From Candidatus Undinarchaeota archaeon (lineage in GTDB: Archaea; Undinarchaeota; CAZWFW01): DNA of 45,845 bases. Each line of letters opens with the position of its first letter. Within the stretch, counting starts at the first letter, position 1. The stretch is taken from the NCBI GenBank assembly GCA_964633445.1, contig CAZWFW010000003.1, positions 1 through 45,845 of the forward strand, written 5' to 3'. The position numbers and the translations under genes are program-made. Shown here piece after piece: positions 126 to 43,048 of the stretch. The notes below the pieces were generated by a model. The model saw only the letters and a list, made by a program, of their open reading frames with translations. It had not been told where the DNA came from and did not search any database.

Positions 126-1097
126 CTAATCAGCGAATAAATATTTCTTTTGTGGGTTTGCAAGCAAAAGTATATTTCTTATAGCCTCTTTATTAGCAAT
201 CTTTAGCAAATTCATGTAAGCGTTCATAGTATCATTTCTTGTTATTCTAACGAATTTATCTACCTCGTCAAGAATAAATGGGAAAACATTTTTGCTGCAT
301 AGTTTAATTAAATAGCTGATTATCTCCTCCAGTTGTTCCTCGTTTGCAAATATCTCTACTTTGTTTCCTATGTTCGTTTTAAAGGCAACAACATATACAT
401 CTCCATAAGTTGGCAATTTGGTAATCGCATCCTTAGCATTATCAACAGCCTTCCCTACACTTTTCAAGTACCTCGCATATTTTTCAACCGCATCCCTTAA
501 TTTTCCAATGACGAAGTATTCGTTCTCATCCAAAACATACGTGATCGCAGCTCTGTCGTAAACTAGATTCTTTTCAGGCATATTGCAGAGCATAGCAATG
601 TATAAGCTTCTAACACGCTTAGGAAATCCGATTATTGCAACATTGTTTTCTCTAGCCAAATTAAGCAATTTTTTCAGGGTATCAACTAACTTATTGCTTA
701 TTTTAAAGGGGGCTCCTGGGAAGTTGTTTATTGGACCGTCTAAGATTATAATATCTGCTTTATCATCTCTCTCTTCAATGATCTTAACCGCAAGTTCTCT
801 CTCCTTTTTAATTAAAAAATTCGTTATTTCCTCCTTCTCACTCAATTTAACCCCGTAGTAAATCTCTTTATCACCCAAATTGCTCAAATAACCATAGGAA
901 TAAGCATAGAATTCTCCATTAAGAACATCCAAGGGAGGGGTTGAATAGCTGGAGTCGATCGCAAAAACGTTAAATTTCTTGGAAATCTCTTTAGCTTTTT
1001 TGGCTTTTATCTCCGTTTTAAATTTCTTCAGCTCTTCAGGTATTATTAAGCTATTTGCAATATCTCGTAATTCCTTTGCTAGGCTAGGTAATAACAT
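126..1097 (-). CDS. nurA: NurA-family 5'-3' nuclease
   Basis: 323-aa ORF with acidic motifs FAIDSSYS and IILDGP at NurA-like spacing. It sits head-to-head with a HerA-like ATPase, the canonical NurA partner. The assignment comes from motif and context recall only. Confidence 0.65.
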   Translation of the reverse strand: MLLPSLAKELRDIANSLIIPEELKKFKTEIKAKKAKEISKKFNVFAIDSSYSTPPLDVLNGEFYAYSYGYLSNLGDKEIYYGVKLSEKEEITNFLIKKERELAVKIIEERDDKADIIILDGPINNFPGAPFKISNKLVDTLKKLLNLARENNVAIIGFPKRVRSLYIAMLCNMPEKNLVYDRAAITYVLDENEYFVIGKLRDAVEKYARYLKSVGKAVDNAKDAITKLPTYGDVYVVAFKTNIGNKVEIFANEEQLEEIISYLIKLCSKNVFPFILDEVDKFVRITRNDTMNAYMNLLKIANKEAIRNILLLANPQKKYLFAD

Positions 1098-1130
1098 AAA
1101 AATATTAAAACAATGCTTAAGTTAAAAATA
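1098..1130. promoter_or_regulatory. Compact bidirectional promoter region for the nurA / herA-like pair
   Basis: Pure A/T tract. On the minus strand TTTTTAA (1122-1128) lies ~24 nt upstream of the nurA ATG (1097). On the plus strand ATATTAAAA (1102-1110) lies ~20 nt upstream of the second herA ATG (1131). This spacing is typical of archaeal TATA boxes driving leaderless mRNAs. Confidence 0.35.
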
Positions 1131-2729
1131 ATGCTTGAGGAAGTTTGGAATAAAACAAAGAAAAGACTTGTTGGCTACACGCTGTCGAATGCGAAATCTT
1201 ACGCTGTGCCAATTCACGTTATTAGTAATGAGATTTTGCAGGAAGAAGAAATCTTAGCAATTGAAGATGGCAGCAGACTTTTAGTAGGAGTGCTAAGAAA
1301 TCTGTGCTCATTAGAGCCGTCTTTAAGGCAGGAGGATACCTCTCATTTTATCTGGAAACCAGAGTTACTGAAGGAATGTCAAGAGCTACTTAGCAGCTAT
1401 GTTACTGGGAATGTCTATATAATTGGGCAAGTTGTTGAGGAAAATGGCAAAGTTATTATGCAAGAGAATAGAATGCCCCCGAAGGCTGGCAGATATGTTT
1501 ATGCTATTGAATCTCCAGAAATACTTGAAAGTTGCGTTAAAATCGATAACGCTCTGAGAGTTGGTATTCATAAATATGCAAAATGGCAGTTTCCTCTGGA
1601 TTCAAAATTTCTAAATTATCACATTGGAATTTTTGGTGCCACCGGTACAGGCAAATCAAGACTTTGCGTAGCCTTAGTACGCGAAATTATAAGTAAGACT
1701 GGCTATAATGTTATTGTTTTTGATCACTCTGGAGTGGATTATGTTAATTTCTTTGAAAATGCTGAGATAATTGATTCAAGCAAAATCTACATACCTCCAA
1801 ATATCATTGCAAATACCTTAGTTAAGCAAGCAAATCTATCATGGCAGAGTTATGGGGATTACTTTGAGATTGTTACGATGATATACGATGAGCTAAGAGC
1901 TGGCTCTTTCAAATCTTCGGAATTTCTGCAAGCCTTGCTGGAGCTCATGCAAAGATTAAGGGAAAGGGAAAGAAGGGTTAATGTACCTAGGATTTTTGAG
2001 GAGGTTGTTAGTACTCAGGCACAAGCTACGCTTAGAGGTTTTAGCAATGATACTGCCAGCAGTATAATTGCTAAGGAAGGATGGAATGTTAAGTTATTTG
2101 TCGATATGCTCAGCGACATAATGCTTTCTTTGGGAAGTAGGGCTCCAAATATAATCAAGGCAGCATCATTCATTTACTGGTTCATAAATCAGAAGGATTT
2201 CCAGAAGCTTAATGAAAGGAGTGTAAAGGCTGAGGATATTGTTAGAACTGCTTTGGAGAGAAGGATCGCCATTGTTGATATGAGCAAGGATAGCGAGATT
2301 GAGATTAAGAGGGCTATTGTTAAGTCTATAATGGATGCAGCATGGCAGATTACCTTAGCTGCTGCTAAACCTCTAAATCTTATCTTTGTTATAGATGAAG
2401 CTCAGAATTATGCCTGCAGCGAATGGACGTTGTGCAAAGATGTTATTGAAAAAACGGCAAGGGAGGGGAGAAAGTGGCAGCTAGGAATAATACTACTCAG
2501 CCAGAGGATTGTTGCAGATATAGATGCCTCAATTAGAGCTAATCTTAACACAATTTTCTTTGGTAAACTAACGGCGCAAACTGATGTTAATGAGTTAAGC
2601 AAGTATTTAGCTCTAGCTGGTGTTGATTATCCAACTCTTGCTAGGTTGCAAGAAAGGGAATTTTTTGTCGCTGGTTTAATGAACCCGATTGATGTGCCAA
2701 TATTGATCAATGTTAAGGAAGTTAATTAA
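1113..2729 (+). CDS. herA: HerA-like (DUF87) hexameric ATPase/helicase
   Basis: 538-aa ORF. An N-terminal barrel-like region is followed by Walker A GIFGATGTGKS, Walker B IFVIDEAQNY and an ILLSQR segment, as in HerA/FtsK-type ATPases. The ATG at 1131 (MLEEVW...) is an alternative start that fits the promoter geometry better. Confidence 0.75.
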   Translation: MLKLKIMLEEVWNKTKKRLVGYTLSNAKSYAVPIHVISNEILQEEEILAIEDGSRLLVGVLRNLCSLEPSLRQEDTSHFIWKPELLKECQELLSSYVTGNVYIIGQVVEENGKVIMQENRMPPKAGRYVYAIESPEILESCVKIDNALRVGIHKYAKWQFPLDSKFLNYHIGIFGATGTGKSRLCVALVREIISKTGYNVIVFDHSGVDYVNFFENAEIIDSSKIYIPPNIIANTLVKQANLSWQSYGDYFEIVTMIYDELRAGSFKSSEFLQALLELMQRLRERERRVNVPRIFEEVVSTQAQATLRGFSNDTASSIIAKEGWNVKLFVDMLSDIMLSLGSRAPNIIKAASFIYWFINQKDFQKLNERSVKAEDIVRTALERRIAIVDMSKDSEIEIKRAIVKSIMDAAWQITLAAAKPLNLIFVIDEAQNYACSEWTLCKDVIEKTAREGRKWQLGIILLSQRIVADIDASIRANLNTIFFGKLTAQTDVNELSKYLALAGVDYPTLARLQEREFFVAGLMNPIDVPILINVKEVN

Positions 2730-2739
2730 TTGAGTTAGT

Positions 2740-3789
2740 TTACAACCCAATCATTTCTTTCTCTATAGCATAAAAGCAATAAGGATCATTGTGAAATTGG
2801 CCTGTAATTGTGTAGGACATAGCATTGCAACCGCCTCTGCATTTCATAGCATACTTGCAGTTTCTGCAGTTGGGCCCAAGCATTTCTTTGTTAAATTTCC
2901 TATTATATGCGAAATTATTAGGATCCTCCCAGATTTCTCTTAGGCCCCTTTCCCTAACATTACCCTCTATAAACTTATCGTGAGCCATTGATAAACAACC
3001 CACAATTCCTCCATCACTTGTAACTCCTATAGCCTCTATTCCTGCTATACAACCGTTCCATCCCTCGCATCCAGGAAGTATTTTTGAAAAATACCCAAAG
3101 CAATGCGCACCTATAACGGGTAAATCCTCAAATCTATTTTTTAACCTCTCCTTTGCTATCCACAGCGCAACAGCATAAAATTCTTCTCTTGAAAGCATGT
3201 ACTCCCTTTTGAAATTTCCGAAAGGCATTGCAACCTGAATTTGCCAATTTACATTTTTCTTGAAAAGCAACTCCTTCATTCTTGGCAGATCTCTAAAGTT
3301 GATTTTGCTTACTGTTGTAATCATAGTTGTTTGAATGTCTCTTTCCCTAAGTAGATCTATTGCTTTAACCGTCTTTTCCCAGGTTCCTTTGCCTCGTATT
3401 TTTTCATGGTTTTCTTTCATACCATCCAGGCTTATTCCAACAACTTTTGGTTCAAGCAAAGCAATTTTATCTATAAACCTATGCAAAATGGTACCATTGG
3501 AAACAAAGGATAAGTTCATTCCCAAATCTTTGATGCATGAAGCCACTTCAAACCAATCTTTTCTTAGGAAGGGTTCGCCTCCCATTAAAGAAACATCCTC
3601 GCAACCAAGCTCAGCAAGTTCCTCGCAAAGTTTGAAGCATTCCTTTGTTGTAAGCTCATTAGGCCTAGGTATCCCGGCAGAAGATCCGCAATGAAGACAT
3701 CTTAAATTACATTTAAGGGTGAATTCCCATACACAACACCTAAGCTTATAGGCTAATTTATTTTTTTCAGATTCTCTATTCCACGACAT
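2740..3789 (-). CDS. Radical SAM enzyme with C-terminal SPASM domain (peptide/protein maturase type)
   Basis: 349 aa. CNLRCLHC (CxxxCxxC) lies near the N-terminus, followed by a GGEPFL SAM-binding segment. The C-terminal Cys cluster GCIAG...GCLSM...CRNCKYAMKCRGGCNAMSY...PYCFY is typical of SPASM auxiliary Fe-S domains. Confidence 0.85.
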   Translation of the reverse strand: MSWNRESEKNKLAYKLRCCVWEFTLKCNLRCLHCGSSAGIPRPNELTTKECFKLCEELAELGCEDVSLMGGEPFLRKDWFEVASCIKDLGMNLSFVSNGTILHRFIDKIALLEPKVVGISLDGMKENHEKIRGKGTWEKTVKAIDLLRERDIQTTMITTVSKINFRDLPRMKELLFKKNVNWQIQVAMPFGNFKREYMLSREEFYAVALWIAKERLKNRFEDLPVIGAHCFGYFSKILPGCEGWNGCIAGIEAIGVTSDGGIVGCLSMAHDKFIEGNVRERGLREIWEDPNNFAYNRKFNKEMLGPNCRNCKYAMKCRGGCNAMSYTITGQFHNDPYCFYAIEKEMIGL

Positions 3790-3821
3790 CTTAATGCTTT
3801 CTCTTTAGCATCTCTACTCAT

Positions 3822-4190
3822 TCATCTCCTATAAGCATCATATTTAATGGCATACCCAAATATCTGCTGTCCTAGCTTGTAAGAGGAAACAAATGCTATT
3901 ATAGAAAAAAGAAGTGTAACAAAAATGCTTGCTACCTTTTCTCTTTTGCTCATGGTAGAAACTACACCTGGGGCTACCATAGCTCTGCTATAGGGATAAC
4001 CCTCACAATTTATGCAAACCGGATTATTTCCTCCCAAGATGAGCCCTAGAATGGCGGATGCTATTATAATAACGAGGTTTGGCAAAATAAGTTTTGCCTT
4101 TCCAATTATCGAGGAGCTCCTTGCAATATCCTTTATTTCCTTTTCGTTTACTTGCATTATTTTCCCTATTTCGAGAAGTTTCTCATTCAT
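3822..4190 (-). CDS. Small membrane protein, paralog B (122 aa)
   Basis: Two clear hydrophobic helices. Its start overlaps the stop of paralog A (ATGA). It aligns with paralog A along its whole length. Its loop carries CINCEGYPYS. Confidence 0.6.
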   Translation of the reverse strand: MNEKLLEIGKIMQVNEKEIKDIARSSSIIGKAKLILPNLVIIIASAILGLILGGNNPVCINCEGYPYSRAMVAPGVVSTMSKREKVASIFVTLLFSIIAFVSSYKLGQQIFGYAIKYDAYRR

Positions 4191-4567
4191 TTCCTCGAAT
4201 ATACGTTATATTCTATGGCTTGTCCAAAAATAGGTTGGGATTTTATTGCAAGGAGAAAGACAAGTATTGAGAGTATTAGTATCGCAGTTTTTGATCTTCT
4301 TTTTTCTTTTAATGCTGCAGGTATAGCGAGGCCTACTACAGCAAATGGATAACCATGAGGAGATGTAGCTGGGCAAGCTCTCTTTCCTATAAGGTAACCT
4401 GCGATAAAGGAAACTATTGCAATTATTATGCCTAATATCCAGTAAATTAATTTGTTTACAGAGCCTCTCCTTCCCATTCTTTTGATATCTCTCTCCTCCA
4501 CCCCTAAACTTTTTGCTATTCCCATAATTCTATCAAAGCTCATAAAATAATAGTAGCTAAAACTCAC
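4187..4567 (-). CDS. Small membrane protein, paralog A (126 aa)
   Basis: Same architecture as paralog B: short HTH-like N-terminal segment IAKSLGVEERDIKRM, a TM helix, the loop CPATSPHGYPF, a second TM helix, and the tail FGQAIEYNVYSRK. It starts 13 nt downstream of the methyltransferase stop. Internal ATGs (M9, M15) are possible alternative starts. Confidence 0.6.
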   Translation of the reverse strand: MSFSYYYFMSFDRIMGIAKSLGVEERDIKRMGRRGSVNKLIYWILGIIIAIVSFIAGYLIGKRACPATSPHGYPFAVVGLAIPAALKEKRRSKTAILILSILVFLLAIKSQPIFGQAIEYNVYSRK

Positions 4568-4580
4568 TAATAAAATTATT

Positions 4581-5858
4581 TCAAAGATCTTCCCAAACAG
4601 GTTGTGGTGGTATCTCTTTAGGATCTGTATGAAATAAACCCATTTCTGCTTTCACATTCTTTCTTAGTTTGCTATTCTTCAACAGCAAATACGCCCTTTT
4701 GTAGTATTCCTCCACTCTGTTCTTTTCATAATTTCCCATTGCTATCTCCAATCTTGCCAAATTCCACCATACCATGGGATTGGAGGGGTTAATATTGGAG
4801 GATTTCTTTAACAATTCTAATGCTTTGTTGAATTTTCCTTTGTAAAACATTTTTATTCCCATATTACATAACTTCATAGCTTTCAGCATTACCAAATCGA
4901 AATCGAAAATCTGAATACTTTCAGATGGTAAACTCAAAATATATTCCAACCTTTCCAGCTCTATTTTTTCGCTTTTAGCAACTTTGTAAACTAGATTTTT
5001 TATATCTTCCACAAATCTTTCAAACTCCTGAATAACATTCAACGATTTCTTTCTTCTAATCCATAGGGAAAAAATTTTATTGCTGAACTCCTTCTCTGCT
5101 AGTAACTCTGCAAGTGATAGGATATTTTTGTTTAAATTTGAAAATTCGAAATTCATAGCTTCTTGAAGAAATACTTTGGGTATCACGGGGCAATGTAATG
5201 AAATTTCCGAAATTATTTGCCTTTCCCAATCAAGATCTCTTTTCGAAAAAATATCTATTGCTTTAGCTACGTACTTCTCAAGTGGTATTAATAAAAGGGA
5301 ATCCTTAAAATAACTTAACTCTTTTCTAAGTTTGCTTCTGAATTCTGCAAAAAACTGATATTCCTTACAATCTATAGGTTTTCTGCATATAACTCTCATC
5401 CCGGGATCATAGATATGAGTTTTAGCCTTTTTCTTCGAAATTTTCTCATAACCTATCTCCTTTAGCACACTTTTCAACAGATCGAATGTAAACCCAGTTT
5501 TATGTTGCATTCCTAGGCTATCTATTCCATAAATCCATTGTAAGGTTTTTTCTTTATCTCTACTTTTCAAAAATTTTTTAAAAGATTTCTCAAGATCTGG
5601 GGTTTCCAAGATTAGAAATCCACCTGACTTTAAAACCCTAAACCATTCGCTTAGAACATACTTGCAATGGATGTAATCAAAATGTTCAATTAGGTGGTAC
5701 GCCTCCATTCTGTCAACGCTGTTCGATTCGAATGGTAGATCTTCAACATCGCATAAAACATCTGGTATTTCTTTGTTATAGCAATCTATGTTGATGTAAC
5801 CAACTTTGTATATGTCTCCACATCCTAGGTGAAGCTTTATTTCATCTTTTGCAGGCAT
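4581..5858 (-). CDS. Class I SAM-dependent methyltransferase fused to a helical/TPR-like C-terminal region
   Basis: 425 aa. The N-terminal ~150 aa carry LHLGCGD, a DLPFESNSVD acidic loop and LKSGGFLILETPD (Methyltransf_11-like). The C-terminal end has TPR-like repeats (NKALELLKKSSNINPSNPMVWWNLARLEIAMGNY). Confidence 0.75.
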   Translation of the reverse strand: MPAKDEIKLHLGCGDIYKVGYINIDCYNKEIPDVLCDVEDLPFESNSVDRMEAYHLIEHFDYIHCKYVLSEWFRVLKSGGFLILETPDLEKSFKKFLKSRDKEKTLQWIYGIDSLGMQHKTGFTFDLLKSVLKEIGYEKISKKKAKTHIYDPGMRVICRKPIDCKEYQFFAEFRSKLRKELSYFKDSLLLIPLEKYVAKAIDIFSKRDLDWERQIISEISLHCPVIPKVFLQEAMNFEFSNLNKNILSLAELLAEKEFSNKIFSLWIRRKKSLNVIQEFERFVEDIKNLVYKVAKSEKIELERLEYILSLPSESIQIFDFDLVMLKAMKLCNMGIKMFYKGKFNKALELLKKSSNINPSNPMVWWNLARLEIAMGNYEKNRVEEYYKRAYLLLKNSKLRKNVKAEMGLFHTDPKEIPPQPVWEDL

Positions 5859-6006
5859 TTTAGTTTTTATTTTAGTTTATTGGAAAAATTGTGCATCGGA
5901 AATTTATACATTATAGCAGCTATAAATAAGTCTGTTACACCACTTTTTGCTACTCATCCATAATAAAGGATTTTATGGAATCATGTTAATTAAACAAAAG
6001 AAAAAA

Positions 6007-7140
6007 TCACCGCTTAACTTCGAATATCACACTATAATTGGGAGGTATTTTCTGGACCAATACCCAATTCATTTTTCCTATTATCATTTCGCAAGGACCC
6101 TTTTCAATGACTTTTATAGAGAAAATGATTCTTTTATTGACATCATCCTTGTAAACTTTTCTTTCAAAACTAACGGAGCACCCACCACCATAAGCATATT
6201 TACCGAGCAAGGTATATCTCGAGAAATCTATTGAGGGTAGTTGAAAATCTGCGCATTCTGGAACAGAAGCTTTATGATTTAAAAGTTCTTGATACTCTTC
6301 TCCAGAATTAATAACATATTCATTATGCGGATCCACAATACAACGTAATTGCTCTGTCATATCTATAAATTGCATCTCTTCTCCGTGAAACCGTGGAACA
6401 TAGTGTGTTACCAATATAATTGCTAAAATTAATCCTAAAATTGATGCTGGAAGTAAATATTTTCTTTCTATTTTTTTAGATTTTGACGCAATAGTACCTA
6501 TCAAGATACCAACAATTATTCCAATAATGAGGATAATAGCAATAGTTATTTCGCTTTTCTCTTTTTCATTTAAGATTAGCGTATCAGTTTCCGACTCAAG
6601 TTCTGGCATACCGCTAATTCTAAAAACAACAGGTATGTTTTCAATACCTAACTTTCTAGCTTCTTCATCTATTATTTCATATATTTCCTCTGTTAGGGTC
6701 TCATTATATTCAAAATCCTTTTTAAAATCTACAAAGAAATACCCATATATGCTGTATCCATAAGTGATTACGGGACCTGCTGGATACTTAAATTCTTTAA
6801 GGCTCTGGCTTTCTCTTAAAGAATCTCCGAGTTCATCCAATTTTTCAAACCATTCCTTTTTCTCCGTCTTGTTTTCGAATTTGGGAATTTTTCCACGTAT
6901 GTCTATTACTATTTCCTCACAAAGTTTCATGCAAATTTCTTCACTTTTGCCAGATTCTATACAATCTTCGATTTCTGACTTTAAAAATTCTTTGCATTCT
7001 TCTTCAGAAAATGCATGAGCTATTTTCAGAAAGAAAATTAAAAATACAAATACAGCAACAATTTTTGTATAATTTCTCACTCCCTCTGACTTTTTAGATA
7101 TTTTATTATACATAAGAATAAACATTACTATTAAACTCAT
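6007..7140 (-). CDS. Membrane protein of unknown function with C-terminal PrcB_C-like beta domain
   Basis: 377 aa. It has an N-terminal signal/anchor (IVAVFVFLIFFLKIAHA), an acidic extracytoplasmic domain and two central TM helices. The C-terminal ~120 aa (INSGEEYQELL...SIDFSRYTLLG...GGGCSVSF...) resemble the PrcB C-terminal domain pattern as I recall it. Confidence 0.5.
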   Translation of the reverse strand: MSLIVMFILMYNKISKKSEGVRNYTKIVAVFVFLIFFLKIAHAFSEEECKEFLKSEIEDCIESGKSEEICMKLCEEIVIDIRGKIPKFENKTEKKEWFEKLDELGDSLRESQSLKEFKYPAGPVITYGYSIYGYFFVDFKKDFEYNETLTEEIYEIIDEEARKLGIENIPVVFRISGMPELESETDTLILNEKEKSEITIAIILIIGIIVGILIGTIASKSKKIERKYLLPASILGLILAIILVTHYVPRFHGEEMQFIDMTEQLRCIVDPHNEYVINSGEEYQELLNHKASVPECADFQLPSIDFSRYTLLGKYAYGGGCSVSFERKVYKDDVNKRIIFSIKVIEKGPCEMIIGKMNWVLVQKIPPNYSVIFEVKR

Positions 7141-7858: not shown

Positions 7859-9745
7859 ATGACGAAGAGAGAGCTGACAGGCATAGATCTGCATATATTA
7901 TTGAGGGAGATTTCAAAAAAACTTGAAAATAGTATCTTAAAGAAGATAAAGGAGGACTTCCAAAATAAAACGTTTCTATTTATTTTCTATAAAAAGAAAG
8001 CTGGTGAGCTACATCTTTTGGTAGAGCTTGGTAAAAGATTGCATCTCACAAATTATAGAAGAGAATTTCCTCAGCCAACACCATTCTGCATGCTTCTTAG
8101 AAAGCATCTAAAAGGATCAGTTTTAAGAAGGATTCTGCAAAAAAATTTTGAAAGAGTTGTTGAGTTTATATTCGAAAGGAATAATAGGAAATATTATTTG
8201 GTTGTGGAGCTTTTCAGTAAGGGAAATTTGCTGCTATTGAATGAAGATAGAAAAATCGTAGCTATCTTTGAGCGTCAATTGTGGAGGGATAGATCCCTAG
8301 AGATTGGCGCAAAATACGAGTATCCTCCCGAAAAAATAAACCTATTTAACTTGAATACCAAAAGCATTTGCAGACTGGCAAAGAGCTGCGATAAAGATAT
8401 TGTTAGGTTTTTAGCCGTAGATTTAGGCTTAGGAGGATTGTATGCTGAGGAAGTATGTTATAGAGCCAAAATCGATAAAAATATGCATGTAAATAGCCTA
8501 ACGGAGGAGCTCGCCAATACCATAATTGAAACCCTTAAGGATATGTTAAAAGAGGAAGCCCATCTTTACGATGATTGCTTTGCCCCCTTTGAACTTAAAA
8601 AATTAAAAAAATCTCCGTTAAAAGTTTCAAAATCTTTTAATGAGGTTCTAGATGAATATTTTGCTAAATTAGAGGATTTGCACAGGAAATCTATTGAGGA
8701 AAGGAAAATTCGCGAGAAGGAGAAAAAGATATGCAAAATTTCAAAAATAATCGAGAAATTAGAAACACAAGAAGAGCTCCTAAGGGAAATTGGGAATCTA
8801 ATTTATTTAAACCTCCCTACGATTCAGAAGCTTCTCGAGGATATAAGAAAAGTTAGAAGGGAAAATTCCTGGGAAAAAGTTAAGGAGATGCTGCCTAGAA
8901 AATACAACTTCATTAGCGAAATTGATGAAAAGGAGGGAAAAATAACTCTAATGATAGAAAACAGGAAAATATCCTTAGATCTGAGGAAGAATGCCGCTGA
9001 GAACGCTAACCTATACTTTGAAAAGGCAAAGAAAATTAGAGAAGAAATTAATCGCCTTAAATGCAAAATTAAGGAGATCGAAAAAAAGAAGGGTATCAGG
9101 AAACTTAAAAAGCTTAAGAGAAGAAAATGGTACGAGAAATTCAGATATTTCTTTACATCAAATGGTTTTTTGGTTATTGCGGGCAAAGATGCTGCAACAA
9201 ATGAATTACTTATCAAAAAATATTTGGAAAGTAGAGATATTGTTCTTCATGCGGAGATTCAAAGCCCGTTTGCTATTATAAAATCTATGGGCAGGAAAAT
9301 AGACGAACAAAGCATAAAAGAGGCTGCTGTATTTACTGCATGTTATTCAAAAGCTTGGAAGCTTGGGTTAGCAAGTATAGATGTTTTCTGGGTTAAACCC
9401 GAGCAAGTAAGCAAAAGAGCCCCCTCCGGGGAATATCTCGGCAAGGGAGCATTCATGATATATGGGAAAAGGAATTATATTGCGGTATCTTTAAGGCTTG
9501 CTATAGGAATTACTTTTGAAAATGATACCTATGAAATTATTGCAGGACCAGAAAGTGCTGTAAGTAGCAAAACTAAATATTTTGTAGTGATTACACCAGG
9601 TAATCTGAAGAGTAGCGATCTCGTAAAAAAGATTAAGAGAAAGTTGAGTAAAAAAATTCCTATTGAAAAAAGAGAAATACTAGAAAGCATAGAGATTTCG
9701 GAATTTCAAAAATGGATTCCTGGGGGTGGGGAAATTAGAAGCTAA
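7859..9745 (+). CDS. NFACT-family protein (Rqc2/RqcH/FbpA-like ribosome quality-control factor)
   Basis: 628 aa. It has an N-terminal NFACT-N-like region, a long Lys/Glu coiled coil, and a DUF814/NFACT-R segment (FLVIAGKDAATNELLIKKYLESRDIVLHAEIQSPFAII). Confidence 0.8.
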   Translation: MTKRELTGIDLHILLREISKKLENSILKKIKEDFQNKTFLFIFYKKKAGELHLLVELGKRLHLTNYRREFPQPTPFCMLLRKHLKGSVLRRILQKNFERVVEFIFERNNRKYYLVVELFSKGNLLLLNEDRKIVAIFERQLWRDRSLEIGAKYEYPPEKINLFNLNTKSICRLAKSCDKDIVRFLAVDLGLGGLYAEEVCYRAKIDKNMHVNSLTEELANTIIETLKDMLKEEAHLYDDCFAPFELKKLKKSPLKVSKSFNEVLDEYFAKLEDLHRKSIEERKIREKEKKICKISKIIEKLETQEELLREIGNLIYLNLPTIQKLLEDIRKVRRENSWEKVKEMLPRKYNFISEIDEKEGKITLMIENRKISLDLRKNAAENANLYFEKAKKIREEINRLKCKIKEIEKKKGIRKLKKLKRRKWYEKFRYFFTSNGFLVIAGKDAATNELLIKKYLESRDIVLHAEIQSPFAIIKSMGRKIDEQSIKEAAVFTACYSKAWKLGLASIDVFWVKPEQVSKRAPSGEYLGKGAFMIYGKRNYIAVSLRLAIGITFENDTYEIIAGPESAVSSKTKYFVVITPGNLKSSDLVKKIKRKLSKKIPIEKREILESIEISEFQKWIPGGGEIRS

Positions 9746-42016: not shown

Positions 42017-43048
42017 CTATCTTTTTGGTTTTTTATTCTTACGTTTTAGCTTCGACAAAAAGCGAAATGGTTTACGCTTATCGTGCTCATCTTCAATCTT
42101 GCCAACAAGTTTCTCGATCAAATCCTCCAACGTAACTAATCCTAGGACTCTCCCTTTCTCTTCTATGATGGCCATATGTATAGCCTTTTTCTGCATTTTT
42201 CTTAGCACATCATCTATTTTTTCCTTTGATGAAACCTTCAGAATATCTCTTTTTATCTCGGAGACCTTAACATCCTTTGGTGCAGCAATTGCGTCCTTAA
42301 CGTGAACCATGCCAACAATATTATTTATGTTACCCTTATATACCGGAAATCTCGAATGTCCTGTTTCTATTGATAAATCAATAACTTTACCAGCGTTTTC
42401 ATTTTCCTCTATACAAATCATCTTTTTCCTTGGAACATATACATCTATTGTCTTAGTTTCGTCAAATACGAAAACCTCCTCAATCAATTCTTTCTCATCC
42501 TTTTTTATGGTACCGTATTTAACCCCTAAATCTAACATAGCCTTTATTTCCTCCTCCGTAACAATCATCTTTGATTTTTCTTTTCCAAGCGCCTTAACTA
42601 TGACATTAGACATTGCAGAGAATGTTTCAGCTACAGGATAAAATATTTTGGTCAAAATGAATAAAGCTTTGGCTATTTTTAAAGCAAATTTTTCATTATA
42701 TATACCAAAGGTTTTTGGGATGGCTTCTCCAAAAACTATAATTAATAGAGTCATTATAGCTGTAGCGATACCAATACCAACGTTTCCAAAAATATTAACA
42801 GCAAGCACGCCTGCTAGGATGGATGCCAAAATGTTAACAACGTTATTGCCTATCAATATGGCGCCAACAACATCTTCTGGTTTTTCTAGTAATTTTTCCA
42901 AAATTCTCGCATTCTTATCACCCTTTCTTGATTTATTCAAAATTCTGGCTTTATTTAAGCTAACAAAAGCCATCTCTGCGCTTGAGAAAAATGCTGATAA
43001 AATAATTAGCAATATTATAGCTAAAACTATTAGCAAAGTATAGGACAT
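42017..43048 (-). CDS. CNNM/DUF21-CBS family transporter (TlyC/CorC-like)
   Basis: 343 aa. A four-TM DUF21 region (SAFFSSAEMAFVSLN) is followed by a CBS pair and a basic tail. Confidence 0.85.
   Translation of the reverse strand: MSYTLLIVLAIILLIILSAFFSSAEMAFVSLNKARILNKSRKGDKNARILEKLLEKPEDVVGAILIGNNVVNILASILAGVLAVNIFGNVGIGIATAIMTLLIIVFGEAIPKTFGIYNEKFALKIAKALFILTKIFYPVAETFSAMSNVIVKALGKEKSKMIVTEEEIKAMLDLGVKYGTIKKDEKELIEEVFVFDETKTIDVYVPRKKMICIEENENAGKVIDLSIETGHSRFPVYKGNINNIVGMVHVKDAIAAPKDVKVSEIKRDILKVSSKEKIDDVLRKMQKKAIHMAIIEEKGRVLGLVTLEDLIEKLVGKIEDEHDKRKPFRFLSKLKRKNKKPKR

Follow-up and report, generated by a model that had tools for sequence, protein, structure and literature searches.

The window considered here, a stretch of 45,845 nucleotides from a Candidatus Undinarchaeota contig (CAZWFW010000003.1), is an ordinary piece of archaeal chromosome with genes for Orc1/Cdc6, an Lhr helicase, a CCA-adding enzyme, methionyl-tRNA synthetase, primase, NFACT, a P-type ATPase and HerA/NurA. 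Within it lie four minus-strand open reading frames (ORFs), found at the coordinates at which an earlier note on this DNA had placed them, which encode a methyltransferase joined to a helical domain, two small hydrophobic proteins (A and B) and a radical S-adenosylmethionine (SAM) enzyme with a SPASM domain. The present analysis concerns these four genes as a candidate module for the maturation of small membrane proteins. The locus is laid out as follows.

4581–5858, minus strand: methyltransferase-helical gene, 425 amino acids, first of the operon
4187–4543 from an ATG (118 amino acids), or 4187–4567 if the start is a GTG (126 amino acids), minus strand: small protein B
3822–4190, minus strand: small protein A, 122 amino acids, paralogue of B
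2740–3789, minus strand: radical SAM/SPASM gene, 349 amino acids, last of the operon
5859–6006, minus strand: intergenic region upstream of the operon, with AT-rich TATA-like boxes before the methyltransferase start

The ATGA overlap at 4187–4190, which joins the stop of B to the start of A, and the 32-nt gap at 3790–3821 are as the earlier note had described them. The 13-nt gap that it gave between the methyltransferase gene and B exists only with the GTG start at 4567, and the ATG at 4543 leaves 37 nt. The longer gap is more likely, because the public gene call for B (P0121, 118 amino acids, ATG 4543, MSFDRIMG...) and the call for its counterpart in a syntenic relative (117 amino acids) both start later. 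The upstream gene (6007–7140) has an oligo-T run at its end, followed by a 148-nt AT-rich spacer, and downstream the radical SAM gene is convergent with the HerA gene. Read directly from the sequence, this suggests that the four genes form a single transcription unit, which likely starts within 5859–6006. Inspection of the ORFs found no shorter classical precursor hidden in the operon; the earlier note had named the small-protein pair as the only neighbouring candidates.

The radical SAM enzyme carries the two cysteine-rich elements from which the earlier note had recognised it.

3688–3711, minus strand: CX3CX2C radical SAM motif (C27, C31, C34), 100% conserved in 80 relatives
2776–3051, minus strand: SPASM domain with seven cysteines (C247, C265, C308, C311, C317, C321, C338) for two auxiliary Fe-S clusters

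Pfam Radical_SAM matches the protein with 96.7 bits and Pfam SPASM with 36.3 bits, the latter over amino acids 247–312, and the CNLRCLHC sequence supplies C27, C31 and C34. The enzyme is highly conserved, with 60–88% identity among more than 100 archaeal homologues, and it passes no NCBIfam family cutoff. Profile hidden Markov models (HMMs), to which the earlier note had looked for a classification, place it outside the housekeeping families; the highest scores come from two families of peptide/protein maturases, TIGR04103 (212 bits, cutoff 725) and TIGR03913 (200 bits, cutoff 592), both of which are called splicease-type here by gene context in reference loci. Spliceases excise a tyramine equivalent from their substrates at an XYG motif (PMC11414181). 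Among the reference loci, a cyanobacterial enzyme (passing TIGR04103 with 833 bits) is encoded behind Nif11-type precursors with LYG, IYG and PYG sites, a GDL-type enzyme (passing TIGR03913 with 781 bits) behind proteins starting ..PYGVAI..SGDL, and the enzyme of the Rheinheimera aquimaris splicease locus (626 bits on TIGR04103, 37% identity to the window enzyme) behind a RhaA-like ORF with ALYGSV.

The high conservation of the enzyme, together with the position of the operon among housekeeping genes on the chromosome, could also be taken to mean that it is a housekeeping protein (of the AhbD/NirJ heme type, anSME or a cofactor-maturation enzyme) whose adjacency to the other genes is incidental. 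The scores speak against this, since the enzyme reaches 145 bits on AhbD (cutoff 500), 137 on NirJ (cutoff 515), 82 on the tungsten-cofactor maturase (cutoff 380) and 77 on MoaA. AhbC (133 bits, cutoff 650) and PqqE (91 bits, cutoff 381) are likewise below their cutoffs, and the sequence match to anSME in a search of the Protein Data Bank (PDB) is weak (35.7 bits). Moreover, no heme or cofactor genes are adjacent, the neighbours being the methyltransferase, the small proteins and HerA/NurA, and the linkage described below extends across two domains of life in several gene orders. The housekeeping explanation is strongly disfavoured and, in our estimation, almost certainly wrong.

An AlphaFold model of the enzyme (predicted local distance difference test, pLDDT, 76.5) retrieves PqqE, SkfB, SuiB, BlsE, anSME, CteB and ChlB as top Foldseek matches, that is, generic SPASM maturases, and is thus uninformative on chemistry. 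PqqE, SuiB, CteB, SkfB, ChlB and anSME share its fold and cluster architecture (Foldseek E from 1e-16 to 1e-11), and each of them modifies a peptide or protein encoded next to it, as is proposed here. However, they are only 15–24% identical to the window enzyme and have no counterpart to the pairing of an enzyme of 340 amino acids, lacking a RiPP recognition element (RRE; RiPP, ribosomally synthesised and post-translationally modified peptide), with a methyltransferase-helical protein. Their C-C, thioether and Cys/Ser-oxidation chemistries use precursor motifs that are absent here.

For the relationships within the group, a neighbour-joining tree was built from 80 relatives and their loci, with one genome scanned per species; these are the sequences that share two motifs, and the placement covers them rather than all SPASM families. 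The window enzyme, L001–L032 and L035 form one clade (33 loci), and the cyanobacterial, Rheinheimera, GDL-type and long myxobacterial enzymes fall in other clades. All seven SPASM cysteines and C27/31/34 are kept in 34/34 clade members and also in the splicease loci. The clade is hosted by Thermoplasmatota, Hel-, Hermod-, Hod-, Thor- and Promethearchaeota, Elusimicrobiota, Syntrophia and Myxococcota.

Of the 33 clade loci, 26 have a methyltransferase gene beside the radical SAM gene, against none of the 47 loci outside the clade (methyltransferase-domain HMM; Fisher p = 5.6e-15), and small precursor genes, in one to five copies each, are present in about 30 of the 33. The co-occurrence of the radical SAM enzyme, the small proteins and the methyltransferase-TPR protein, for which the earlier note had proposed a test, is thus borne out. 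In three of the seven clade loci without a methyltransferase neighbour, the contig ends at the small genes or at the radical SAM gene; in the Syntrophia loci L024 and L029, the radical SAM and precursor genes occur with no methyltransferase neighbour. All three gene types are adjacent in Thermoplasmatota, Hel-, Hermod-, Hod-, Thor- and Promethearchaeota, Elusimicrobiota and Myxococcota, and three orders are seen (methyltransferase-small-radical SAM, radical SAM-small-methyltransferase and radical SAM-methyltransferase-small). This variation in gene order therefore points to selection on linkage rather than to shared ancestry of one arrangement. A reciprocal search gave the same picture, as loci reached from methyltransferase homologues only 26–28% identical to that of the window also contain a radical SAM/SPASM gene together with two small ORFs that belong to the precursor family. 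In the closely related genome GCA_054010715.1, the arrangement is identical, HerA/NurA included; the A/B arrangement is identical in the related-genome locus L081. No other conserved gene accompanies the module across the clade loci.

The two small proteins are paralogous, as the earlier note had stated (34% identity, E = 3e-13). Their main features are listed below.

4119–4184, minus strand: leader-like N-terminal helix of A (EKLLEIGKIMQVNEKEIKDIAR), consensus L..IG..LGL(S/T)..E(I/V)
3990–4001, minus strand: GYPY motif of A, with the first invariant tyrosine, Y65
3831–3845, minus strand: K-Y-D-A-Y of A, with the second invariant tyrosine, Y117 (codon 3840–3842), a predicted modification site; K116 is the variable X
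4349–4351, minus strand: first invariant tyrosine of B (HG-Y-PF)
4208–4210, minus strand: second invariant tyrosine of B, Y112 (AIE-Y-NVY), a predicted modification site

Databases say little about this family. Pfam gives only a sub-threshold holin match on B (17 bits, cutoff 22), NCBIfam has no significant match for A, B or six diverse relatives, a word-indexed search with B alone retrieves itself and one close relative, and every database member of the family is labelled 'hypothetical'. Iterative HMM searches of the loci nonetheless recovered 32 relatives beside the radical SAM gene, in one to five tandem copies per locus. An HMM built without the window sequences identifies B (E = 4e-18) and A (E = 8e-12) as the only clear matches among the window ORFs. 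The next ORF on this HMM reaches E = 0.0047 with high compositional bias, followed by one at 0.39; the marginal match of a 343-amino-acid ORF at 42017–43048 on the minus strand (E = 0.005, high bias) is probably a compositional artefact of its membrane helices.

The common plan of the family consists of an N-terminal motif, L..(I/L)G..(I/L)GL(S/T)..E(I/V), usually one hydrophobic anchor, and a C-terminal core with the consensus Y-(P/T/A)-x-G-x-x-Y-(G/S/A)-(T/S/V)-(I/V)-x-x-x-D-F. The leader-like motif recurs in archaeal and bacterial relatives, and the N-terminal helix is conserved in all precursors. The combined leader-plus-core pattern occurs in 18 loci, all in or beside the clade; the splicease and other loci lack it. 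The earlier note had held that A and B do not resemble classical leader-core precursors, a view that does not survive comparison with the family: the compact relatives have the usual leader-(anchor)-core layout, and some carry three or four cores in tandem. Compared with these, the window copies are derived, their core being interrupted by a hydrophobic insert. In this subtype, an insert of about 50 residues follows GYP(Y/F) and splits the core, and the D-F tail is lost. B, for example, comprises a leader-like helix, a transmembrane helix, the GYPF motif, the hydrophobic insert and a C-terminal tail.

Across 52 aligned members, just two positions never vary, and a tyrosine stands at each (Y65 and Y117 of A). 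The first is followed by proline in 38 of the 52. Around the second, position -1 (X) takes 11 different residues; position +1 is Gly in 31/52 and one of S, A, D, N, T, Y and F in the others; and positions +2 (V/T/S) and +3 (I/V/Y/F) are each confined to the residues given in 47/52. The second tyrosine is never C-terminal, since 5–31 residues follow it. The spacing between the two tyrosines is 5–6 residues in compact forms, about 28 in L084, 36–74 in the window subtype and 47–52 in the window proteins themselves. The window tails read AIK-Y-DAYRR (A) and AIE-Y-NVYSRK (B), with Asp or Asn in place of Gly, and close relatives in L015 have the same tail with Gly (AIEYGVYNK, SIDYGVYCK). The behaviour of X is most striking in precursors with three or four tandem cores (L012, P0142, P0146, P0148 and P0152). 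In their repeat unit, YKAGT-X-YGTVS, X alone varies radically (K, D, R, I, E, F, Y), with the residue before the first tyrosine being V, I or L only and positions +2 and +3 showing an occasional conservative change.

The anchor differs between lineages. In Elusimicrobiota it resembles a lipoprotein signal peptide with a lipobox Cys, and in some Thermoplasmatota and Myxococcota relatives it is absent, which leaves plain leader-core peptides. The core of the compact and lipoprotein-type relatives is clearly destined for the outside, and modification by cytoplasmic enzymes would therefore have to precede export. In both A and B, two hydrophobic helices are clear, and a shorter hydrophobic segment comes after GYP(Y/F); the modified tail would lie inside or outside according to whether this segment crosses the membrane.

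Could A and B instead be accessory parts (membrane anchors, or proteins for immunity or export) in a system whose enzymes act on some other protein, a lipid or a cofactor? Their size (118–122 amino acids) and hydrophobicity are unusual for precursors, no modification has been observed so far, and the radical SAM superfamily includes archaeal lipid enzymes (GDGT-MAS, rank 48 in Foldseek). However, such a role would not account for the anchor-less leader-core relatives, some of them tandem-cored (L011, L012, L013 and Myxococcota), for the two tyrosines being the only invariant residues, or for the precursor-like copy number of one to five per locus; nor is the module accompanied by a further conserved gene. 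We regard this explanation as improbable. Tandem paralogues, two invariant tyrosines, compact leader-core relatives and lipobox-like bacterial versions all argue for the precursor nature of A and B, and it is very probable that the four genes form a dedicated protein-maturation module in which A and B are the substrates and the radical SAM enzyme acts on a conserved tyrosine.

The third component was described in the earlier note as a methyltransferase fused to a TPR-like tail.

5379–5858, minus strand: methyltransferase domain, amino acids 1–160, with SAM-binding LGCG (amino acids 10–14), N-I-D, IEH and GMxHK motifs
4626–5366, minus strand: helical/TPR-like domain, amino acids 165–411, from AlphaFold secondary structure, with a conserved WNLAR (W365, N366, R369)

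The fusion itself stands: Methyltransf_11 matches with 33.9 bits (cutoff 21.2), and a helical tail is present. Its assignment to TPR fell just short, as TPR_11 (25.2 bits, cutoff 26.8) and TPR_19 (24.8 bits, cutoff 25) both lie slightly below their gathering scores and both on amino acids 338–379 only. The AlphaFold model (pLDDT 96.5, predicted template modelling score 0.92) is one rigid body in which residues 165–411 form 13 helices after the Rossmann fold. In Foldseek, the N-terminal 200 or so residues match generic class I methyltransferases alone; the helical domain has no structural match in the PDB, and no TPR structure was returned. Nine residues are invariant in 65 homologues (G12, G14, N23, D25, E58, H59, G111, H119 and N366). 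A Pfam match above cutoff, the invariance of G12, G14 and D25, and the structural matches of the N-terminal domain identify the protein as a class I SAM methyltransferase, and since its SAM-binding residues are invariant, it is probably active. The full-length family is small: at E <= 1e-30, a search of 1.84 billion proteins gives 113 representative clusters. Candidate targets of methylation are the phenol of the first tyrosine or the product of the radical SAM step, and the helical domain may dock the precursor, its leader helix, its hydrophobic segments or the radical SAM enzyme.

Which reaction the radical SAM enzyme catalyses is a more difficult question, and spliceases are the natural point of comparison. 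They are its closest characterised homologues (33–37% identity); both PlpX/PlpY (type I) and RhaX/RasX (type II) systems, like the window system, have a full seven-Cys SPASM domain and precursors encoded alongside. As in the splicease sites, X-Y-G-V-(V/I/A), the second tyrosine of the family is usually followed by Gly and then V/T/S and is preceded by a hypervariable residue. In binary splicease systems, a leader alpha-helix binds and activates the enzyme (PMC11414181, PMC9811515), and the conserved N-terminal helix of the precursors may be the counterpart of this activating helix (PMC11414181). Splice tags function within whole proteins, and spliceotide products inhibit Ser and Cys proteases (both among PMC11414181, PMC10533398, PMC11626197, PMC9811515 and PMC10849128); whole proteins as substrates would be common to spliceases and the window system. 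Given the homology to spliceases and the pattern of hypervariability at X, our best single guess, which we hold tentatively and at slightly worse than even odds, is that the enzyme excises tyramine at Y117 of A and Y112 of B.

Put together, the proposed pathway would run as follows. A and B would be the substrates, and their conserved N-terminal helix would serve as a leader that recruits or activates the enzymes. The radical SAM/SPASM enzyme would target the invariant tyrosine that lies in the tail at the C-terminus, Y117 of A and Y112 of B, and, as in its closest characterised relatives, would excise a tyramine equivalent from the backbone. The methyltransferase-helical protein, a clade-specific partner, would add a methyl group; its helical domain would probably hold the precursor or the radical SAM enzyme, perhaps in place of the C-terminal extension of spliceases or the PlpY helper. 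The products would be membrane-anchored small proteins with electrophilic ketoamides and different side chains, plausibly directed at proteases. As a speculation, paralogues with a different X (K and E in the window; E, L, D and R in L015) would yield anchored warheads of different specificity. We give the overall proposal, a three-component, splicease-related maturation system for ribosomally made membrane-anchored proteins, a probability of about 0.45. Its parts differ in strength: the substrate relationship of A and B is strongly inferred, the site of modification (Y117/Y112) moderately, and splicing as the reaction, the target of methylation and the role in biology weakly to moderately.

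Several observations weigh against splicing and should be set beside the similarities. The window enzyme, at about 340 amino acids, covers model positions 2–344 of 412 and is without the C-terminal 70–130 or so residues of spliceases. Its scores are far below the splicease cutoffs (212 vs 725; 200 vs 592), with a margin of only about 70 bits for splicease over generic SPASM families, and in the neighbour-joining tree of 80 relatives its clade stands apart from the validated PlpX-, RhaX- and GDL-type spliceases. To our knowledge, every characterised splice site reported is XYG, whereas in this family the Gly is not conserved, and whole sub-clades have S, A, Y, F, D or N instead: Promethearchaeota have Ser at position +1, Elusimicrobiota Tyr or Phe, and the two window proteins Asp or Asn (K-Y-D, E-Y-N). 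Nor does the splicing model give a role to the other invariant tyrosine, that of the YP motif. Nothing points to the target of the methyltransferase, for which Foldseek returns only generic class I enzymes, and the stage at which a cytoplasmic enzyme would meet the tail depends on the membrane topology. The idea that the exchange of Gly for Asp or Asn preserves a positive phi angle was considered and dropped as a general rule, as Ser, Tyr or Phe occupy the position in other sub-clades.

Further differences from spliceases concern the composition and distribution of the systems. No PlpY-like gene was found among the window ORFs and Pfam matches; in place of PlpY there is the methyltransferase-helical protein, which none of the 47 splicease-type and other loci under study has. 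The precursors of the window family are membrane-anchored, or lipoprotein-like in bacteria, and the hosts are mostly archaea, whereas surveys of spliceases list hundreds of pathways, which are bacterial (PMC10849128, PMC11414181).

The main rival to splicing is a tyrosine-based cross-link. Here, the module and its substrates would be the same, but the radical SAM enzyme would form a C-C or C-O bond on one or both invariant tyrosines, either as a cyclophane between a tyrosine and a neighbouring residue or as a Tyr-Tyr link that staples the core halves, and the methyltransferase would cap a phenol. Such a reaction would suit the two invariant tyrosines, which are 5–6 residues apart in compact precursors, as well as the lack of conservation of the +1 Gly of known splice sites and the separate clade of an enzyme that is about 33–37% identical to spliceases; furthermore, many of the SPASM maturases matched by Foldseek (SuiB, PqqE, CteB, SkfB) are cross-linkers. 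However, in the window the tyrosines are 47–52 residues apart with a hydrophobic helix between them (36–74 in relatives), the PqqE, WgkB, DynA and StsB models all score below the two splicease families, and the hypervariable residue before the second tyrosine fits a splice site better than a ring-forming motif. We consider a cross-link unlikely, but a serious contender.

A third type of reaction comes to mind because many tails read Y-G-V-Y and thus recall mycofactocin, whose precursor has a C-terminal G-V-Y. In that system, too, a radical SAM/SPASM enzyme acts on a tyrosine near the end of a small precursor with a similar tail, and a class I methyltransferase belongs to the cluster. A mycofactocin-like decarboxylation or cyclisation at the G-V-Y tail, or another radical reaction directed at the tyrosine or the tail (epimerisation, beta-hydroxylation or thiolation), could accordingly be imagined, and the window enzyme does match the MftC model (TIGR03962), as does the methyltransferase, weakly, that of MftM. 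Nonetheless, the MftC score (142 bits) is below both the cutoff of 265 and the splicease matches, and the MftM score is 25 against 200. The mycofactocin tyrosine is C-terminal, whereas in the window family it lies 5–31 residues from the end; the +3 aromatic is not conserved (I/V/Y/F); and MftB/RRE, MftD, MftE and MftF genes are not found near the window operon or the clade loci. Reactions of this kind are thus quite unlikely.

Another system that invites comparison is TIGR04133, 'rSAM with lipoprotein', a hypothetical equivalog in which a SPASM enzyme is likewise encoded beside a small exported protein or lipoprotein; the lipobox-like precursors of the bacterial clade members recall it. The window enzyme, however, scores 145 bits on TIGR04133 (cutoff 425), and the partners are unrelated as far as tested (NCBIfam).

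How new is the system? The earlier note had suggested an undescribed module. This holds for the precursor family and the methyltransferase partner, for which there is neither a Pfam or NCBIfam model nor a literature match; it does not hold for the enzyme, which is related to known spliceases. What is known already is a radical SAM/SPASM maturase, splicease-related, with adjacent precursors. New, as far as checked, are the radical SAM clade, the methyltransferase-helical partner, the two-tyrosine precursor family, the membrane-anchored split-core substrates and a predominantly archaeal distribution that includes Asgard lineages. Searches of the literature for the core motifs returned nothing relevant; the bacterial clade members may figure in the catalogue of Scott et al. 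2022 (Chem), which reportedly comprises 939 predicted splicease systems.

If the proposal is true, backbone splicing or related radical chemistry on tyrosine would reach from bacterial secreted peptides to archaeal membrane proteins, including those of Asgard lineages, the closest to eukaryotes. It would also mean a new precursor family that Pfam and NCBIfam miss, as standard RiPP-mining tools probably do too, and a new type of accessory protein in which a methyltransferase is fused to a helical repeat domain. Spliceases serve as tools for placing beta-amino acids and reactive ketoamides in proteins, and a compact enzyme of 340 amino acids with a relaxed +1 position (Gly, Ser, Asp, Asn or aromatic) would widen this toolbox. 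Even with a different chemistry, the strict two-tyrosine signature would make a clean and directly testable system. A bolder extension is more doubtful than probable. It would see here the first archaeal tyramine-splicing system and the first on integral membrane proteins, with Thermoplasmatota and Asgard archaea displaying small anchored membrane proteins in which cutting and rejoining of the backbone had produced ketoamide (beta-amino acid) warheads. The methyltransferase-helical partner would then add a new modification and replace the RRE or C-terminal domain found in bacterial spliceases, the side chains of the paralogues (Lys, Glu) would form a protease-directed shield or sensor, and the enzyme would read a recognition motif and a reaction site about 50 residues apart.

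A number of individual loci depart from the common plan. Two tandem paralogous radical SAM/SPASM genes lie beside the methyltransferase gene in L011 (1788–3889) and L035 (5892–8062), which suggests that some lineages may carry out two different radical steps, perhaps one per invariant tyrosine. Among the precursors, the two ORFs of L084 (359–640 and 842–1117) have a non-membrane insert of about 28 residues between TYP and (K/E)YG(A/V)F, and a single ORF of L013 (6270–6650) contains two complete leader-core units in tandem. In the Elusimicrobiota loci L014, L017, L019 and L022, small ORFs with lipobox-like signals follow the methyltransferase gene, and two cysteines flank the first tyrosine (CGPxPGYPCG); one Elusimicrobiota precursor is followed by a porin-like gene. 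Small protein A itself has a C-I-N-C sequence (4006–4017) just before GYPY, and a disulfide or metal site near the first tyrosine may be part of the design.

Two lineages show additional genes. In the Thermoplasmatales locus L012, a clostripain-family Cys protease gene (8052–9581; Peptidase_C11, E = 1e-20) comes directly after the radical SAM gene; the same locus has an anchor-less three-core precursor and two further radical SAM genes, with the methyltransferase gene absent. This protease could be a processing enzyme or the target of the product. In Thorarchaeota, a gene for 138–139 amino acids lies directly upstream of the radical SAM gene (about 6500–6960) in L018, L020, L021 and L025, that is, in all Thorarchaeota loci examined that have sequence upstream of it. 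The L020 copy contains an SCP2 lipid-transfer domain (Pfam, E = 5e-13), and the other three are closely similar; the gene may be a lineage-specific extra component for hydrophobic precursors.

In the window, the gene immediately upstream of the operon was considered as a third substrate and rejected. It encodes a 377-amino-acid membrane protein (6007–7140, minus strand) in which a leader and a YPxG...YG core can be picked out by eye ('KLDELGDSLRESQSLKEFKYPAGPVITYGYSIYGYFFVDFKKDF'; KLDELGDSL...KYPAGPVITYGYSIYGY). It scores only E = 0.4–3 on the precursor HMMs, no related locus has a counterpart, and the syntenic genome lacks it. Neither Rfam nor tRNA scanning turned up any feature in the window, and PADLOC returned no match for the module except a generic viperin-core match of the radical SAM enzyme. 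On the other side of the operon, NurA (126–1097, minus strand) and a HerA-like ATPase (1113–2729, plus strand) form a divergent pair, convergent to the radical SAM gene, and this synteny is also seen in L081 and L082. The window HerA scores at most 59 bits on every curated HerA/CedD model, and its best PADLOC match is 'mad8' (85 bits); the role of this ATPase may be in repair or in defence.

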